From Clostridia bacterium (GTDB lineage Bacteria; Bacillota; Clostridia; RUG12999), in contig JAFQMF010000013.1 in assembly GCA_017396395.1 (NCBI GenBank), positions 41,161-105,160 on the forward strand: 64,000 nt of DNA. Reading direction: 5' to 3'. Below the pieces are notes generated by a model. The model made no database searches. It was not told the origin of the DNA and worked only from the letters and a program-made list of their open reading frames with translations. Below, piece after piece: positions 29,955 through 57,683 of the stretch. The translations under genes were made by a program, and so were the position numbers. Position 1 is the first letter of the stretch; each line of letters begins with the position of its first letter.

Positions 29955-29988
29955 AAAAAAAGCCGAGATTTATCTCGGCTTTTTTTAC
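29955..29988. terminator. bidirectional rho-independent terminator
   Basis: AAAAAAAGCCGAGATTTATCTCGGCTTTTTTT. Confidence 0.8.
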
Positions 29989-31070
29989 GCTACTTTATTT
30001 TCTCCGTTTGCGTAGTTTATAAAAACTCCCTGCTGTACATTATAGCAATATACGCAAAAAGACAAGCCTTTCCCCTTATCTTCTACTGAATAGGCTTCCA
30101 TTAAAACACCACTTGCTACAAGATTATCCCCCTGAAAAACAGGAGTTACTCTATACATAACGTGATTTCCTGTTTTGTCAATATAGCTGTCCACCATATT
30201 TTCAAAGGGTAACATTCCTTCCACGTTCATATACCTTGTGCCGGTAATTAAATTACGGGGATTGGCATTTTCTCCTGTTAACTGAAATCCCAGAAGGTGA
30301 CATCTGTTATAAAGGTATTTTCCCGAAATGAAATCATATTGTCTGTTTTTCCACCCTGTAGGCTTAATACTGCTTATATTCCCTCTTTTTTCAGTTGGCA
30401 TTGTATCCAAGGATACAGAAGCCACACATACATCGCATCTTCCAAGACCATCTAAACTGCTGTAATATTCAAAAGAGGCAGGAATAATTTCATAATCCTT
30501 AAAAAAAGGTTTATTATTATTTATTTTTATATACGCACTTTTGGAGTATTCTTTTAACTCTCCCAAAAGATAATCGTATTCCCCCTGCTGGAAAAGGTCA
30601 CGGATAATGTAAACCTTTTCTGTAGCTTCGTCCCATGCCACCCCAAGATTAAAGCTCTCTGCAATAAAACGGATGGGAAGCATCGTCCTGTCATTATAAA
30701 CAGAAGGAGCAACATCCAAAGTAAACAAGGCTCCGTTTAAATAAGCTTTTTTACTGTCTATAATAAGCTTTATAGTATCATTTTCAAGAGTAAGAACAGC
30801 CGTTTTCTCTTTTCCTTTCCAGTCCACCTTGCCACCAAAGGCTTCAATAATAGCACGAACAGGCACTAATGTTCTGCCTGTTTTTATTATAGGCTCTGTA
30901 CCTCTGCCTGGGTCAATTTCCTGATTTTCTCCGTTTACTGCCATTAAAGGATTGCCAATCTGCATACTTATTACAACATCTTCAGGCTTTTGGGATGCAA
31001 TTACATGAGGAGATAAAAGGAGGAAGCATATTAAAAATGCAAATACTCTATAAATTCTGTTTTTGTTCAT
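29985..31070 (-). CDS. secreted DNA/RNA non-specific endonuclease (EndA/Endonuclease_NS_2-like) fused to a copper amine oxidase N-terminal stalk domain
   Basis: signal peptide MNKNRIYRVFAFLICFLLLSPHVIAS; CuAO-N repeat RTLVPVRAIIEAFGGKV / RTMLPIRFIAESFNLGV; nuclease block YNRCHLLGFQLTGENANPRNLITGT aligns to the FDRGHLLGYAL...NPKNI region of EndA. Confidence 0.78.
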   Translation of the reverse strand: MNKNRIYRVFAFLICFLLLSPHVIASQKPEDVVISMQIGNPLMAVNGENQEIDPGRGTEPIIKTGRTLVPVRAIIEAFGGKVDWKGKEKTAVLTLENDTIKLIIDSKKAYLNGALFTLDVAPSVYNDRTMLPIRFIAESFNLGVAWDEATEKVYIIRDLFQQGEYDYLLGELKEYSKSAYIKINNNKPFFKDYEIIPASFEYYSSLDGLGRCDVCVASVSLDTMPTEKRGNISSIKPTGWKNRQYDFISGKYLYNRCHLLGFQLTGENANPRNLITGTRYMNVEGMLPFENMVDSYIDKTGNHVMYRVTPVFQGDNLVASGVLMEAYSVEDKGKGLSFCVYCYNVQQGVFINYANGENKVA

Positions 31071-32554: not shown

Positions 32555-33232
32555 TTAAAGTATGCCAAACAAAATAAACCCTACGGTATTTACACCAAAA
32601 TTTGCAAACATATGCACTGCCCAAGAGGTATATATACTCTCCTCTTTTTCATCTAGAAAATTAAATATCAGTCCTCCTGCAAAAAGTCCTGCAAATAGTA
32701 TCGGCAGTACCCATAAATCAAACATTATGGCAAGCATCCCTGTGTGATACAACGCAAACATACCTGCACTGAACATATGGGAAAATTTTCTTCCTCCAGC
32801 TTCCTTCAGATTTATAAAACCAACGCCCCTGAAGAAGAATTCCTCCAGAAAGGAATTTATAAGGGAAATATAAAGAGAAACATATATAAAGTTGTTTCCG
32901 TTTACTCCGTGATTTTCCGTAAGTCCCGTTACAACACTTGAAAAGTCAATAAAGCCTTTTGTTAAAAAATATCCTCCAATTATTACAGCATAAATTCCTA
33001 CACCTATAATTACCGCCTTAAAAAAACTTGCTTTTTTTACAATAAACAGCTTTTTTAAACTCTCTGCTTTGTTTTCCCGCAAAAAATATATTGCAGGTAC
33101 AACTAAAAACAGTAATATTTTTATAAGGGATTTTGTTATATATTCAGGCTTTATAACTGCATCTACAGCTGACATTATAATAGATGACAGTATTACCCAT
33201 ATTATAATATAAATGCCTGTGTTTCTTTTCAT
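32555..33232 (-). CDS. CPBP-family intramembrane metalloprotease (CAAX protease / Abi)
   Basis: EExxFRG, FxxxH and HxxxN/F motifs (EEFFFRGVGF, FALYH, WAVHMFANF). Confidence 0.85.
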   Translation of the reverse strand: MKRNTGIYIIIWVILSSIIMSAVDAVIKPEYITKSLIKILLFLVVPAIYFLRENKAESLKKLFIVKKASFFKAVIIGVGIYAVIIGGYFLTKGFIDFSSVVTGLTENHGVNGNNFIYVSLYISLINSFLEEFFFRGVGFINLKEAGGRKFSHMFSAGMFALYHTGMLAIMFDLWVLPILFAGLFAGGLIFNFLDEKEESIYTSWAVHMFANFGVNTVGFILFGIL

Positions 33233-33299
33233 AATTTATTCCTTCTTTCAAAGGTTTTTATATTGTAAAATCAGGGAACGATTTAGATGACAACATTTT

Positions 33300-33495
33300 T
33301 CGTCGATATGCAATCTTTGATTGCTCGATATTTTTACTTCTTAAAATTGATATGTTTTTTCGGTCAATTCGTGAATTGCCCCTACAAAAACTCGATATGA
33401 TATAAATCTCGTTGCGTCAGCAACATATCGAGCCGTTAGGATATATCGCACCGCAAGGTATATCGCAAATTCCGTCAGGAATTTATATCGCTGAG
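33300..33495. repeat. quasi-palindromic intergenic repeat element, copy A (phased CGATAT / ATATCG motifs around a GTTGC-N-GCAAC core)
   Basis: 4 forward CGATAT copies (33304, 33326, 33349, 33392) and 4 reverse ATATCG copies (33424, 33443, 33460, 33485) at ~20-bp spacing; its reverse complement aligns with 56041-56200. Confidence 0.6.
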
Positions 33496-33575
33496 TTTAA
33501 TCGTTTCACGATTAAACTCATTATACCATACCACTTTCCCTTTTTCAATATTTCATTTCATAATTTAAATACATA

Positions 33576-33611
33576 TTAAAAACCTTGCAAGAATTCTTGC
33601 AAGGTTTTTGT
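33576..33611 (-). terminator. rho-independent terminator downstream of purC
   Basis: AACCTTGCAAGAATTCTTGCAAGGTT hairpin; T-run on the minus strand. Confidence 0.75.
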
Positions 33612-54104: not shown

Positions 54105-54352
54105 AATAAAAAATAGTCGTATAAGCTACGACTATCATTACTTTTCTATTATACCCCTTAATGACAGGGGGAATATTTTCAAAAAGTAAGATAGCTCTCC
54201 GCTTAAAGCGACAACAAAGTAAATATTATTTTACTTTGCCAGATCAGACTTACGCCTCGCCTGTCTTCGGCACCTGTACCTTTCTTTACCGCTGACTTTT
54301 GCGAAAGCCCTTTTATAGCGGAAATACTATTTACAAAATGCACCTCTATCAC
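54105..54352 (-). promoter_or_regulatory. lysine riboswitch (L-box) with intrinsic terminator, leader of dapA-dapB-lysA
   Basis: on the minus strand: GATAGAGGTGC P1 start; conserved GGTGCCGAAG; closing GGAGAGCTATC; then terminator ATAGTCGTAGCTTATACGACTAT plus TTTTTTATT immediately before the dapA RBS. Confidence 0.7.
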
Positions 54353-54396
54353 TTTCTATATAATACCATATTTTTTTCTTTTTGTCAACTGTTTTA

Positions 54397-54786: not shown

Positions 54787-55641
54787 TCAAATTGTTCCTG
54801 TAATTGTAAGAGTTGCTGTGCCCGGTGTAACTATAAACTGTCCTGTTACATTTGACTGTGTAACAGTTGCAGCAGGCACTGTAATCTGACCTGGAACTGT
54901 TGCAAATTCACCTGTAGTCACAGCATAAGTGTAATTTGTATTAAGTCCCCATAGAGTACCATTGTAAGTTACTATAAGCTCTGTAAGTGCAGGATTTAAA
55001 ATGTCTGTAATCTGTATAGCATCCTCTGCATCTGCAACCGTTGTACTGTTGTTTACAATAGTAAAGGTATAGGTTATCTGCTGACCATCAATAACAGTAG
55101 TAGGTGTAAGAGCTTTTACAAGACTAAGGTCTGGCTCTGTTGTTACATTGATAGTTTCGTCTGCAACAACAGCAGGACTAAGACCTGTAGCAAAAATTGT
55201 AACTTGGTTACGGATAGTTCCTCCTACTGCAACAGGAGCAAATTCATTAGCAGTAGCTGTATATGCCACAATTGCATTTCCACCTGCGGGAATTGTAATA
55301 TTACTGATAGTAAGGGGTGGTCCTCCTGCTATCGTAACATTTGTCTGACGAACACCATTTACAAATACACTTGCTGTTTCATCTACATAGGTGAGAGGAA
55401 CTAAGTCCTCAGTGCCAAAGGTGTAAGCACCAAGGTCATCTGTTACTGTAATATCATTATAATCAGTAGTACCTGTGTTTAATATACTTACTATAAAAGT
55501 TATATTATCACCCTGATTGTAAGTGCTTTTTAAAGCGGATTTTGTAACAGAAATATCCTGGACAATAGTACCTGTTACAATGTTGGATAATACATTACCG
55601 CCTGTATAGGTTAAGTTAGCCTGGTTAGTAAAGGTTGCCAA
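54787..55641 (-). CDS. leaderless two-repeat DUF11-like (conserved repeat domain) Thr/Asn/Val-rich protein, possible spore-surface protein
   Basis: two repeats of the form ...KS.L....Y..GD.ITF.V...NTG...NDITVTD.L (ISVTKSALKSTYNQGDNITFIVSILNTGTTDYNDITVTD and LSLVKALTPTTVIDGQQITYTFTIVNNSTTVADAEDAIQITDIL); no signal peptide; TTG start 10 nt after AAGGAGG. Confidence 0.72.
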   Translation of the reverse strand: MATFTNQANLTYTGGNVLSNIVTGTIVQDISVTKSALKSTYNQGDNITFIVSILNTGTTDYNDITVTDDLGAYTFGTEDLVPLTYVDETASVFVNGVRQTNVTIAGGPPLTISNITIPAGGNAIVAYTATANEFAPVAVGGTIRNQVTIFATGLSPAVVADETINVTTEPDLSLVKALTPTTVIDGQQITYTFTIVNNSTTVADAEDAIQITDILNPALTELIVTYNGTLWGLNTNYTYAVTTGEFATVPGQITVPAATVTQSNVTGQFIVTPGTATLTITGTI

Positions 55642-55824: not shown

Positions 55825-55900
55825 GCTGGTGTAGCTCAATTGGTAGAGCAGCTGATTTGTAATCAGCAGGTCGCGGGTTCGAGTCCCATCACCAGCTCCA
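55825..55900 (+). tRNA. tRNA-Thr (anticodon UGU)
   Basis: GCTGGTG acceptor pairing with CACCAGC; GCTCAATTGGTAGAGC D-arm; anticodon loop TTTGTAA; GGTTCGAGTCC T-arm; encoded CCA. Confidence 0.85.
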
Positions 55901-55922
55901 ATTTTTTGTTCAAATTTAATAT

Positions 55923-56007
55923 GGAGAGGTTCCCGAGTGGCCAAAGGGGACAGACTGTAAATCTGCTGCTTATTGCTTCGGTGGTTCGAATCCACCCCTC
56001 TCCACCA
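55923..56007 (+). tRNA. tRNA-Tyr (anticodon GUA), long variable arm
   Basis: GGAGAGG/CCTCTCC acceptor; anticodon loop CTGTAAA; 13-nt variable arm; GGTGGTTCGAATCCACC T-arm; encoded CCA; 85 nt like Bacillus tRNA-Tyr. Confidence 0.88.
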
Positions 56008-56043
56008 GAAAAAAGCGTACTGAAAATTCAGTACGCTTTTTTC
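56008..56043 (+). terminator. rho-independent terminator of tRNA operon
   Basis: AAAAGCGTACTGAAAATTCAGTACGCTTTTTT. Confidence 0.85.
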
Positions 56044-56200
56044 AGCGATATATACTCCGTACGCGATATATCTTGGATGCGATATGTTGCCTTACTGCAA
56101 CGAGAAAAGGAATTTATATCATATCGCAACAAGCGAAGTGGAGTTATATCGAATTTGCAAAGCAAATATATCGCACGAGCGTTAGCGAGTATATCGCCTA
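56041..56200. repeat. quasi-palindromic intergenic repeat element, copy B (3 GCGATATA + core GTTGC-N-GCAAC + 4 TATATCGC)
   Basis: motif copies at 56045, 56063, 56079 (forward) and 56122, 56146, 56167, 56191 (reverse); aligns to the reverse complement of 33300-33495. Confidence 0.6.
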
Positions 56201-56330
56201 AACATTGTCATCCAAACCATTCTGTTCTTCCAGAAAAAGTAAAACTTAAAACTCGCACCTTTAAATATAATCAGTCCCGAACACAAATGTGTTCGGGACT
56301 TTACTTTTTCAGCTATAAGCTTATTAAAGA

Positions 56331-57683
56331 TTAAACTACACCCTGAGCCTTCATAGCTTCTGCAACCTTAATAAAGCCTGCAATATTAGCACCTGCTACA
56401 AGGTCGTCTCCAAGACCGTATTCGTTAGCTGCCTTAACTGAAGATTCAAAAATATTCTTCATAATGCTCTTAAGTTTCTGGTCAACTTCTTCAGCAGACC
56501 AGCTGTAACGCATTGAGTTCTGAGACATTTCAAGACCAGAAACAGAAACACCGCCTGCGTTAACTGCCTTAGAAGGAGCTATGATAACGCCCTGCTCTTT
56601 AAGATAAGCAAGAGCTTCGTTTGTTGTAGGCATATTAGATACTTCAACATAGTATTTAACGCCGTTTGCAACAATCTGTTCAGCTTCTTTCATACCAACT
56701 TCGTTCTGGGTTGCACATGGCATAATAATATCAACCTTTGTTCCCCAAGGTTTCTGACCTGCATAGAAAGGAACACCGAACTTATCTGCATAATCCTGAA
56801 CTCTGTTTCTGCAGGATGCACGCATTTCAAGCAAGAAGTTAATCTTTTCTTCTGTGTTGACACCTGCTTCATCATAAATATATCCGTCAGGACCTGAAAT
56901 TGTAACAACCTTACCGCCAAGCTCTGTAATTTTCTTAGCTGTACCCCATGCAACATTACCAAAGCCTGAAAGTGCAACTGTTTTGCCTTTAATATCATCT
57001 CCAAAATAGTTAAGCATTTCTACTAAATAGTAAACTGCACCGAAACCTGTAGCCTCAGGACGGATAAGAGAACCACCATAAGGAATACCTTTGCCTGTAA
57101 GTACACCTGTAAACTCATTTCTGAGCCTTTTATACTGACCAAATAAGTAACCAATTTCTCTTGCACCAACACCGATATCCCCTGCAGGAACGTCAAGGTC
57201 AGCACCGATATGTCTGGAAAGCTCTGTCATAAAGCTCTGGCAAAATCTCATTACTTCTGCGTCGGATTTTCCCTGAGGGTCAAAGTCAGAACCACCTTTA
57301 CCGCCACCCATAGGAAGTGTGGTAAGGCTGTTTTTAAATGTCTGTTCAAAGCCAAGGAATTTGATAATACCGGAATATACATTGGGAGCAAATCTAAGAC
57401 CTCCCTTGTAAGGACCGATAGCTGAGTTAAACTGAACTCTGAAACCTCTGTTTACCTGTACTTTACCGTTATCATCCACCCAAGGAACACGGAAAGTAAT
57501 CTGTCTTTCAGGCTCTACCATTCTGTCAATAACCCCTGCCTCTACAAGGTCAGGTCTCTGTTCAACAACAGGCTCAATAGATTCAAGAACTTCTGTTACA
57601 GTCTGAATAAATTCAGGTTCTCCTGCGTTTCTCTTCTTAACTGTTTCTATAAGATTAAGAAGATATTCATTTTTTAATGCCAT
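56331..57683 (-). CDS. gdhA: NADP-specific glutamate dehydrogenase
   Basis: Glu/Leu/Phe/Val dehydrogenase motifs KGGLRFAP and GxGNVA; ~450 aa. Confidence 0.95.
   Translation of the reverse strand: MALKNEYLLNLIETVKKRNAGEPEFIQTVTEVLESIEPVVEQRPDLVEAGVIDRMVEPERQITFRVPWVDDNGKVQVNRGFRVQFNSAIGPYKGGLRFAPNVYSGIIKFLGFEQTFKNSLTTLPMGGGKGGSDFDPQGKSDAEVMRFCQSFMTELSRHIGADLDVPAGDIGVGAREIGYLFGQYKRLRNEFTGVLTGKGIPYGGSLIRPEATGFGAVYYLVEMLNYFGDDIKGKTVALSGFGNVAWGTAKKITELGGKVVTISGPDGYIYDEAGVNTEEKINFLLEMRASCRNRVQDYADKFGVPFYAGQKPWGTKVDIIMPCATQNEVGMKEAEQIVANGVKYYVEVSNMPTTNEALAYLKEQGVIIAPSKAVNAGGVSVSGLEMSQNSMRYSWSAEEVDQKLKSIMKNIFESSVKAANEYGLGDDLVAGANIAGFIKVAEAMKAQGVV

Follow-up and report, generated by a model that had tools for sequence, protein, structure and literature searches.

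The element described here, two copies of which lie in a 64,000-nucleotide stretch of contig JAFQMF010000013.1 from a Clostridia bacterium (the window, meaning the whole stretch analysed), comes closest to Gut-1 (RF01706), an RNA motif that was published as found in human gut sequences, with no further description, and was rated "RNA: Y, cis-regulatory: n" (Weinberg et al. 2010, Genome Biol 11:R31, PMC2864571). No later literature on Gut-1 was found, and matches to "GT-1 motif" concern plant promoters. A second point of reference is Avd of the diversity-generating retroelements (DGRs). This protein is a pentamer shaped as a positively charged barrel, "similar to S23 ribosomal proteins", and touches its RNA at a defined Avd-binding element (bioRxiv 10.1101/2023.10.23.563531; PMC10053308). 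Like the REP (repetitive extragenic palindrome)/BIME/REPIN, ERIC, BOX and Correia repeats, the present element is dispersed, non-coding and dyad-symmetric, occupies 5', 3' and intercistronic sites of unrelated genes, often stands beside terminators, can carry promoters and forms hairpins when transcribed. Multimeric regulators that read repeated RNA words are represented by TRAP (11 GAG/UAG repeats), HutP and the type III ToxIN system with its repeat RNA. These systems share with the present loci the layout of promoter, repeat RNA and small protein gene, and possibly also a ring-shaped homo-oligomer that reads identical short words of a leader and switches its folds. In contrast, the proteins are unrelated, the words are separated here by hairpins and have complementary partners, and neither a terminator/antiterminator pair, nor identical tandem units, nor a PADLOC match was found; a type III toxin-antitoxin system was rejected, the units being non-identical, the gene not being preceded by a terminator, the protein belonging to PF05635 and PADLOC giving no match. 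The finding is real and not an ordinary one, and the element acts single-stranded, most likely as RNA. We give an even chance to the fuller reading that it is a structured RNA of a Gut-1 superfamily with two competing folds, forming the leader of a transcript in copy A and the trailer of one in copy B, and probably a ligand of an Avd-like four-helix-bundle pentamer.

Copies A (33302-33492, - strand) and B (56014/56044-56198, + strand) are homologous and oppositely oriented, as judged by a covariance model, blastn and MAFFT. The model, built from the copies of other genomes, matched copy A over its full length with 129.2 bits (E 1.7e-31), against only 46 bits on the opposite strand, and matched copy B at 56014-56198 with 102.1 bits (E 1.3e-24); it detected no third copy within the window. 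A blastn search of copy A against the window recovered copy B at E = 2e-5 (67 nt, of which 76% are identical), and MAFFT aligned the two from the first word to a common tail, TTGTCATC(T/C)AAA. The window contains CGATATA 12 times where 4.5 +/- 2.1 copies are expected; eight of these 12 lie within the two loci. The sequence-only reading had claimed two homologous, inverted, non-coding loci of one architecture, with repeated words, a palindrome and inverted arms, and all of these were found as described; an element of the proposed ~200 bp is likewise present, but its extent is larger, namely ~33262-33548 for copy A with promoter, P0 hairpin and tail, and 56008-56233 for copy B with its terminator as P0 and its tail. 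A search for an exact 23-nt core, GCAACGAGA-N0-10-TTTATATCATATCG, in one genome per species found at least 119 loci in at least 57 assemblies, a set in which the window's own species is absent; the 80 matches listed, from 57 assemblies, are all from uncultured gut or rumen Clostridia. Carriers among the matches listed belong to Oscillospiraceae, Acutalibacteraceae, "Eubacteriales" and Ca. Ornithomonoglobus; the element measures ~180 nt, and the canonical four plus four words are found in 76 of the 98 copies with complete flanks. Additional copies therefore exist, and these loci, together with the folds, bear out the earlier idea of a dispersed family able to form a long branched hairpin. The promoter, the alternative helix, the relation to Gut-1 and the link to a four-helix-bundle gene go beyond that first description.

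The single-stranded form is indicated by the hairpins. All seven spacers between the words are small hairpins whose stem sequences vary with retention of pairing; hp2, for example, appears as GTCA/TGAC, GTGC/GCAC, GTTCC/GGAAC, GCCA/TGGC and ACC/GGT. Among 93 copies aligned to the model, standard pairs occupy 93.7% of cells against 83.9 +/- 0.2 in shuffled data, 38 of 67 pairs show changes on both sides, and double-change cells number 665 against 209 +/- 14. The covariation score of 0.279, compared with 0.113, was matched by none of 500 shuffles, and when the partners were slid by 1-3 columns as a control, it fell to 0.06 or less. A tandem G.A internal loop is retained in hp5 and in hp7 of the G-type subfamily. 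The P0 hairpin, which precedes the first word (L1) in all classes of copies, also has a stem that covaries between copies, and the excess of G-U over A-C in P0 and hp6/hp7 on the predicted strand was counted for directionality. Only 6-8 nt of each unit are conserved, and the word spacing of 16-29 nt is irregular because the spacer hairpins differ in length, so that neither the 16-23 bp spacing nor the phasing of about two helical turns of the sequence-only reading was upheld. An array of iteron-like double-stranded sites for a dimeric protein, about two turns apart, would explain why one word of 6-8 bp recurs, with 7-9 copies arranged as two inverted arrays, and why the word is family-specific. 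However, covarying short stems with 3-4-nt loops require a single-stranded form, whereas duplex DNA sites need no such pairing; moreover, the spacing runs over 16-29 nt, the hairpins differ between copies of one genome (L073), and the element is neither carried by plasmids or phages nor accompanied by a rep-like gene. The covariation removes this explanation for practical purposes, and we consider it highly improbable. Replication-origin iterons proper, that is, identical 17-22-bp direct repeats beside a rep gene or an AT-rich region of a replicon, were also rejected, the arrays being inverted, the conservation confined to 6-8 nt, the spacers hairpins, and plasmid or phage matches absent: the core pattern has no match in 2.9 M viral contigs, and the full copy none in PLSDB or INPHARED. 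The repeated word may nevertheless be the site of a multimeric protein, but on RNA.

Two mutually exclusive global folds were recognized. In the ladder, the words pair as nested rungs L1:R4, L2:R3, L3:R2 and L4:R1 (CGAUAU:AUAUCG), with three four-way junctions and the centre bulged out, and this is the minimum free energy structure of a canonical copy at -70.8 kcal/mol. Relative to shuffles, canonical copies fold with z of -4 to -10, copy A with -3.0 and copy B with -4.7. The window copies folded alone reach an unimpressive z of -0.8 to -2.4, so that their structure is revealed only by the comparative data. The outer pair of L4/R1 (62 UA, 23 GC, 6 other) is U-A in the T-type and G-C in the G-type subfamily. 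In the second fold, Alt-1, the centre GAGAUUUAUAUC pairs without mismatch, as its reverse complement, with the 5' end GAUAUAAAUCUC, which comprises L1 and the 5' strand of hp1; the G-type counterparts are the centre GGAAUUUAUAUC and the 5' end GAUAUAAAUUCC. The complementarity is 12/12 in 67 of 76 copies, with a mean of 11.75 against 11.16 +/- 0.08 when the centres are shuffled among copies. It covaries between the subfamilies, with GAGATTT/AAATCTC in one and GGAATTT/AAATTCC in the other, and the relation is kept in four sister families of unrelated sequence, including AAAUUUGC/GCAAAUUU, AAGUUUGC/GCAAACUU and UAAAUUCGC/GCGAAUUUA as well as UUAUAUUCGCC/GGCGAAUAUAA in the Gut-1 seed. Alt-1 is better supported than the ladder. 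Folded by itself, the 5' half adopts Alt-1 at -33.3 kcal/mol, and at full length the ladder reaches -70.8 against -52.9 kcal/mol for Alt-1. Since Alt-1 closes the 5' half on itself, frees the 3' arm and excludes hp1 and, topologically, the ladder, the element has, on these modelled folds, the anatomy of a conformational switch. Kissing loops between the arms were rejected, as the arm loops are non-complementary within copies. A terminator scan also marked hp4 and the U-rich centre of copy A (GUUGCUGACGCAAC GAGAUUUAUAU; 33410-33425, - strand) as terminator-like; if this terminator is real, Alt-1 or the ladder could modulate termination within the element.

An Rfam scan at gathering thresholds reported no family at either window locus, in agreement with the earlier failure to recognize a named element. 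At a permissive threshold, Gut-1 matched the 5' arm of copy A with 18 bits (E 0.58) against a gathering threshold of 50, and its model had no match on copy B. In 18 further loci scanned at the gathering threshold, Gut-1 matched only a TGAAAT-type neighbour in L034, where hits of 56 bits (+) and 52 bits (-) correspond to the two arms of the neighbouring element with the word UGAAAU/AUUUCA; this element scores 53.6 bits with the covariance model of this study. Beyond the modelled 77 positions, the Gut-1 seeds show a second arm, GUGAUAU variants, centre complementarity and the tRNA-terminator context, and the seeds BAAZ01025322 and BAAZ01000095, like L034, have the same flanks, with a tRNA and terminator upstream and an inverted arm downstream. 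Both groups thus have covarying small hairpins separated by one repeated word (GUGAAAU/GUGAUAU there, (U/G)CGAUAU here), occur in metagenomes of gut Clostridia, stand after a tRNA gene and terminator, and share the loop bias discussed below and the complementarity of centre and 5' end, which can be seen in the Gut-1 seeds and in L034. On the other hand, the Rfam model covers one arm with 3 hairpins and 77 positions, the junction word differs, and the two-arm ladder, Alt-1, promoter, tail and protein link are not part of the published Gut-1 description. Although the test with the curated score failed, every architectural feature is common, and the element is classified, from sequence comparison, as a divergent sister or subfamily of Gut-1. 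A word-agnostic detector run on the fetched loci revealed further sister families with the words GCTAAAT, ATGATG and GTGAAGT, which stand beside TGAAAT, the word of the Rfam Gut-1; several of these families share genomes and kinds of site with the CGATAT type. Sister elements with four plus four hairpins were located at L003:3380-3551 (-), L021:2694-2840, L034:4171-4334 and L079:6093-6236, and near 1005-1195 in L200, L203 and L206.

The commonest gene directly 3' of the element, found in 18-21 of the 119 loci, encodes a 116-121-aa protein of PF05635/TIGR02436, a family named "23S rRNA intervening sequence protein" and "four helix bundle protein". In these loci, only 8-17 nt separate the last word from a ribosome-binding site (RBS) and ATG, and no terminator stands before the gene. 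Genes of clade A follow CGATAT-type elements at 18 element-selected loci and in both protein-selected contexts; the two protein-selected orthologues, one after an m5U methyltransferase and one after an MFS transporter gene, have CGATAT elements upstream that score 71 and 116 bits. Upstream of clade B (56% identical; N-terminus MAESIM...) stand GCTAAAT-type ladders, each with a TTG-17-TATAAT promoter of its own, in three unrelated contexts (nagB/NUDIX, pfl/alaS-like and glnA/acetyltransferase) and in L003. Across the three neighbourhoods, the protein of this clade-B cassette is 92-95% identical, and homology is restricted to the promoter, ladder and gene. Two protein clades, each with its own ladder family upstream, suggest a cognate protein-RNA pair. 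Relatives of the four-helix-bundle family are pentamers, PDB 2RLD containing five chains, and the 3' arm shows five AUAUC(G) words when the one in the centre is included. From this adjacency and the analogy with Avd, we infer that each clade recognizes its own ladder word, autoregulates through its leader and acts on orphan copies. Both the RNA of Avd-containing DGRs and the 23S rRNA intervening sequences place a PF05635/TIGR02436 gene beside a highly structured RNA, as is the case here. The present loci differ from these in having no reverse transcriptase, no template/variable repeats, a gene placed 3' of the structure rather than inside a stem, and an RNA that is a ladder of repeated words. 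A DGR itself was rejected, as no reverse transcriptase occurs in any listed four-helix-bundle locus, where the neighbours are m5U methyltransferase, NUDIX, HNH, acetyltransferase and other genes. Weak Pfam and PADLOC scans of the four-helix-bundle proteins gave nothing beyond PF05635. As further observations, L203 and L204 have an unannotated open reading frame (ORF) of 107 aa that overlaps the clade-B stop, and clade-A database entries are often 157-188 aa rather than ~117 aa long (P0002, P0003, P0010, P0016 and others); gene callers appear to extend the clade-A ORF upstream through the ladder. Spurious ladder ORFs also formed the largest "protein" cluster when neighbouring ORFs were clustered.

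The flanks of the copies fall into three classes: a promoter class (29 copies, including A), a terminator class (23, including B) and an intercistronic class. In the promoter class, TTG stands exactly 23 nt before the -10 element in 24 of 29 copies, TG at -15/-14 in 24 of 29 and TRTG in 23 of 29, and the spacer sequences are unrelated between copies; by this pattern of conservation, the sigma-A promoters are taken to be genuine and selected. A co-directional gene is faced by 27 of the 29. Copies of the terminator class begin 1-3 nt past the T-run of a bidirectional terminator, 19 of 23 of them after ...CCA (a tRNA 3' end or tRNA-like tail), an A-run, a hairpin and a T-run; the next gene is more often convergent (13 vs 6), and no promoter of their own was found in this class. 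Copies of the intercistronic class have a P0 that belongs to the m5U RNA methyltransferase gene, whose final codons (HVECYVRLCRT*) form it. Overall, 60 copies are oriented toward flanking genes and 32 are not, and the element has a tail on one side only: a tail box, (T)GCATCTAAAYYRTTC, follows many copies and is common to the sister families, and TAYAAT lies 16-18 nt past it in ten copies. Since the genes downstream of the promoter class are functionally unrelated and those that follow the element include CAAX protease, tsaC-like, MATE, ROK kinase, EamA, LacI, luxS, queH-like, RNase HII, DUF559 and four-helix-bundle genes, a metabolite riboswitch or a leader for one class of genes was rejected.

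A trans-acting small RNA family, the category in which Rfam places Gut-1, expressed from its own promoter or by read-through from tRNA operons, independent of the four-helix-bundle protein and serving as a sponge or scaffold of eight or nine words or by multimerising, would suit the near-consensus promoters, which are typical of abundant stable RNAs. It would also suit the adjoining tRNA operons, the several diverged paralogues per genome that are conserved across species, the non-cis-regulatory rating of Gut-1 and the identity of the words within an element beyond the needs of pairing. However, promoter-class copies have no terminator after the element, a gene begins within 30-130 nt of it in 27 of 29 of them, the RBS abuts the last word in the four-helix-bundle loci, and the terminator-class copies lack a promoter of their own. 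Such a family is distinctly unlikely. Other promoter assignments were dropped. The sigma-D/sigma-28 consensus is TAAA-N15-GCCGATAT, and the similar TAAA-N15-(T/G)CGATAT runs from L1 to L2 (33467-33492, - strand, in the window, and in all canonical copies), but it is absent from the sister families and otherwise unsupported. A sigma-54 reading of the tail (TGGCAT-N5-TTGT) was rejected, as its GG/GC positions are not constant from copy to copy. Promoters diverging from the centre (bottom strand TGATATAAA) are unsupported, the rightward spacing varying between subfamilies; the central TGATATAAA is uninformative on promoters because it was fixed by the search pattern. Two further observations concern the promoter class. 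Most of its CGATAT copies have a P0 of the form GATTTCA-N7-9-TGAAATC (e.g. L097:6370-6393 and L018), which thus holds a Gut-1-type pair ATTTCA/TGAAAT around a mini-hairpin and could be a coincidence or a trace of hybrid ancestry. Small ORFs (MDRKHNIKLVPFAKELRKNMTKEERHLWYDFLR...), which we take to be DUF559-like from their motif, directly follow promoter-class elements in L026, L084 and L091.

Copy A, all parts of which lie on the - strand, would be transcribed from a near-consensus, TG-extended sigma-A promoter, TTGAAA-17 nt-TATAAT (-35 at 33543-33548, -10 at 33520-33525; 11/12 in a promoter scan). P0, GAGTTTAATCG-TGAAA-CGATTAAACTC (33493-33519), is a perfect 13-nt inverted repeat directly before the first word. 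The ladder (33302-33492), delimited by the covariance model and alignments, holds four CGATAT words, hp1-hp4, the centre, four ATATCG words and hp5-hp7. Read along the strand, the 13-bp-stem hairpin is followed by AGCGATATA, the hairpin AAATTCC-TGAC-GGAATTT and GCGATATA, then by two short spacers, each with a CGATAT word after it, the palindrome GTTGC-TGAC-GCAAC (33411-33424), the central 12-mer GAGATTTATATC (33399-33410) and the hairpin-separated ATATCG words. The 5' words CGATAT (ATATCG on the + strand) are placed at 33485, 33460, 33443 and 33425, and the 3' words at 33393-98, 33348-53 (R2, degenerate ATATCA), 33326-31 and 33304-09. The central 12-mer forms the 3' strand of Alt-1, and its 5' partner GATATAAATTCC (33478-33489) is complementary to it at 10/12 positions. 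The copy is a chimera of a G-type 5' arm and a T-type 3' arm, and its hp5 carries an extra inserted hairpin, which is also found in L050, its closest relative (83% over 280 nt, from the -35 element to the tail). The tail box GTCATCTAAATCGTTCCCTGATTT, followed by TACAAT (33262-33291), was defined by pairwise alignment with L050 and by tail statistics. The homology to L050, which precedes a different gene, stops just past the tail box, and the start codon of the CAAX-protease gene (32555-33232, - strand; Pfam Rce1-like match) lies 30 nt further on; a MATE transporter gene comes after it. Copy A is thus flanked by the purC terminator (33578-33609) and the CAAX-protease start. The placement of both copies downstream of terminators, of purC and of tRNA-Tyr, was correctly seen in the sequence-only reading, but copy A also has its own promoter and lies upstream of the CAAX-protease gene.

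Copy B lies on the + strand, behind the tRNA-Thr/tRNA-Tyr genes (55825-56007). The position of P0 is taken by their bidirectional terminator (56008-56043), a 17-nt perfect inverted repeat with an A-run and a T-run, and the copy starts one base past the T-run. Its ladder (56044-56198, from the covariance model) is G-type, with three CGATAT words at 56046, 56064 and 56080, hp4 as GTTGCC-TTAC-TGCAAC (56086-56101), the centre GAGAAAAGGAATTTATATC (56102-56120) and ATATCG words at 56121, 56146, 56168 and 56191. L1 and hp1, which are retained by the orthologous tRNA-Tyr-linked copies of other species, are missing, and the 5' partner of Alt-1 was consequently lost too. The tail GTCATCCAAACCATTCTGTTCTTCCAG (56207-56233) aligns with that of copy A and recurs in L008, L034, L105 and L111. 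A convergent glutamate dehydrogenase gene (56331-57683, - strand), identified by Pfam, faces the copy, with its own terminator at 56273-56300 according to terminator scans.

The copies within one genome are 45-95% identical (median ~72%), and since the best match (87-99%) mostly lies in another species, they are, as judged from these identities, old paralogues kept by selection without a recent burst. Synteny of the tRNA-Tyr-linked copy extends over several species. Inspection of 76 copies showed no flanking target-site duplication, only the words themselves (8-13 nt) are inverted at the element ends, and no transposase cluster was found among 860 ORFs of the 119 loci, whose clustering gave only the four-helix-bundle gene, the syntenic m5U methyltransferase, MATE, AraC-like and DUF559 genes as recurrent neighbours. 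The suggestion of a miniature inverted-repeat transposable element (MITE) was therefore not sustained, lacking terminal inverted repeats beyond the words, target duplications, near-identical copies and a recurrent transposase. Nor did comparison provide an empty site: among 80 metagenome loci with PurC relatives (75-93% identical), none has an element next to purC, and no boundary of the element could be defined from them because the synteny downstream of purC is not kept. Tandem arrays, chimeras and unit deletions are found among the copies. Arrays of two elements, each with its own P0, were observed at L013:1783-2232, L099:703-1116, L119:2002-2453 and L003:2078-2496, and in L013 the terminators flanking the first element are mutually reverse-complementary (loop CATTATTG vs CAATAATG).

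Remnants of a small mobile cassette, consisting of promoter, ladder and four-helix-bundle gene, sometimes with an HNH gene, would leave the window copies as functionless MITE-like or "mobile promoter" derivatives. The clade-B unit, which recurs in three unrelated neighbourhoods with homology limited to its three parts, copy A and L050, which precede unrelated genes, and the defects of both window copies point in this direction; so do the HNH endonuclease gene that overlaps the stop codon of the clade-A four-helix-bundle gene (L209:1554-1988) and the PF05635 genes known as cargo of rRNA intervening sequences. The lack of terminal inverted repeats beyond the words, of target duplications and of near-identical copies within genomes speaks against it, as do the absence from viral contigs, PLSDB and INPHARED, the strong purifying selection on the structure of orphan copies across species and the synteny of the tRNA-Tyr-linked copy in many species. 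We rate this scenario as very unlikely.

Several findings weigh against a structured RNA bound by the four-helix-bundle protein. Both window copies are non-canonical and may be decaying: copy A is chimeric, with Alt-1 at 10/12 and one degenerate word, and copy B is short of one unit. No four-helix-bundle protein is encoded in the window, the distant four-helix-bundle gene of L101 (46% identical) has no ladder upstream, and binding is deduced from gene adjacency only. Folding is as good on one strand as on the other. The core of each rung, six positions long, is invariant, which confines rung covariation to the outer pair; this covariation is clear for L4/R1, weaker for the other rungs, and weak for L3/R2 and L1/R4. 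All words are identical within one element, which pairing alone does not demand. Transcription is predicted to start at the seventh nt after TATAAT, which lies within the 5' strand of P0, even though covariation is seen at the outer pairs of this hairpin. Finally, the loops of the hairpins differ between the arms, with T..C in the 5' and G..A in the 3' arm and a closing C-G throughout, the counts among 93 copies being 65 for hp1 and 57 for hp4 (T..C) and 46, 59 and 54 for hp5, hp6 and hp7 (G..A), with almost none of the opposite kind; the triloops GAA and GGA dominate in the 3' arm, and the same bias is found in the sister families. Read outward from the centre, every loop is cGNAg or cGNNAg. 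Among DNA mini-loops, d(cGNAg) and d(cGNNAg) have the highest stability, and the bias agrees better with DNA minihairpins formed by one strand in one arm and by the opposite strand in the other than with an RNA of one strand.

A REP/REPIN-like repeat acting as single-stranded DNA, in which a protein specific for both structure and word recognizes the arm minihairpins on the strand running 5'-3' away from the centre, for instance on the lagging-strand template, and transcription is incidental, is kept under consideration mainly because of this dyad-symmetric strand use. It is also favoured by wobbles, with A-C exceeding G-T in left-arm hairpins (20 vs 10) and G-T exceeding A-C in hp6/hp7 (15 vs 3), counts that are small and phylogenetically non-independent. 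The covariation of P0 despite its overlap with the predicted transcription start, the adjoining terminators, and the tandem arrays, chimeras and unit deletions are further points on its side. Among the REP/BIME/REPIN features, inverted arrays and a strand-symmetric loop bias were observed, but no RAYT or other transposase partner stands near the elements (whole genomes were not searched), and no HUH/RAYT-like gene recurs in the 119 loci. In contrast to the REP-type families, there are few, old copies per genome that are conserved across species, with individually compensated internal hairpins and no target duplication. Moreover, the unit has a direction, its promoter lying on one side and its tail and RBS on the opposite one, and nothing mirrors Alt-1; the orientation bias toward flanking genes (27 of 29 among promoter copies) also speaks against such a repeat. 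On balance, we regard a single-stranded DNA repeat as unlikely.

In the preferred reading, an RNA with competing folds, the transcript would comprise, from 5' to 3', P0, four units of CGAUAU plus hairpin, the apical GUUGC...GCAAC, a centre of 12-19 nt, four units of AUAUCG plus hairpin and the tail box. Copy A would be the leader of a CAAX-protease/MATE operon, whereas copy B, a deletion derivative, would be made only by read-through of the tRNA-Thr/Tyr terminator. The repeated word may be the recognition site of a cognate pentameric, Avd-like PF05635/TIGR02436 protein, whose own gene would itself follow a member of this element family. By binding the five AUAUC(G) words of the 3' arm, the protein could shift the balance between the ladder and Alt-1, and this shift of fold may alter the fate of the attached transcript, be it its stability, its processing or its translation. 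The two copies in the window would then be "orphan" targets, the gene of the protein lying in another part of the genome.

The window otherwise indicates a spore-forming Firmicute with 36.7% G+C and SpoVA genes. A T-box leader (48-251, + strand; 104 bits) and a lysine riboswitch (54184-54356, - strand; 81 bits) are ordinary Firmicute cis-regulators. A gene for a 284-aa DUF11/DUF7507 repeat protein (54787-55641, - strand) lies just upstream of the tRNA-Thr/Tyr pair, and a 361-aa protein (29985-31070, - strand) combines a copper-amine-oxidase N-terminal domain with a non-specific endonuclease domain.

For the family, the analysis provides a full-length model that comprises the promoter, the ladder of two arms and the alternative helix with its covariation; a set of sister families told apart by their one repeated word; and a one-to-one pairing of word families with protein clades. 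For annotation, it means that the ORF downstream is often over-extended through the element and that the curated Rfam model misses the element. To our knowledge, Gut-1 has been an orphan RNA motif since 2010, and no role of PF05635/TIGR02436 is known outside the Avd of DGRs, although the family is very large, with thousands of close relatives. As a tentative and rather doubtful extension, ladder RNAs and Avd-like pentamers might together form a new sequence-coded RNA-protein system, in which each protein clade would read a 6-7-nt word of its own (CGAUAU, GCUAAAU, UGAAAU and others), present five times among the hairpins, and its binding would toggle the folds for autoregulation and for the control or marking of orphan copies. 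If this is true, it would be the first function for PF05635/TIGR02436 outside DGRs and the first for Gut-1.

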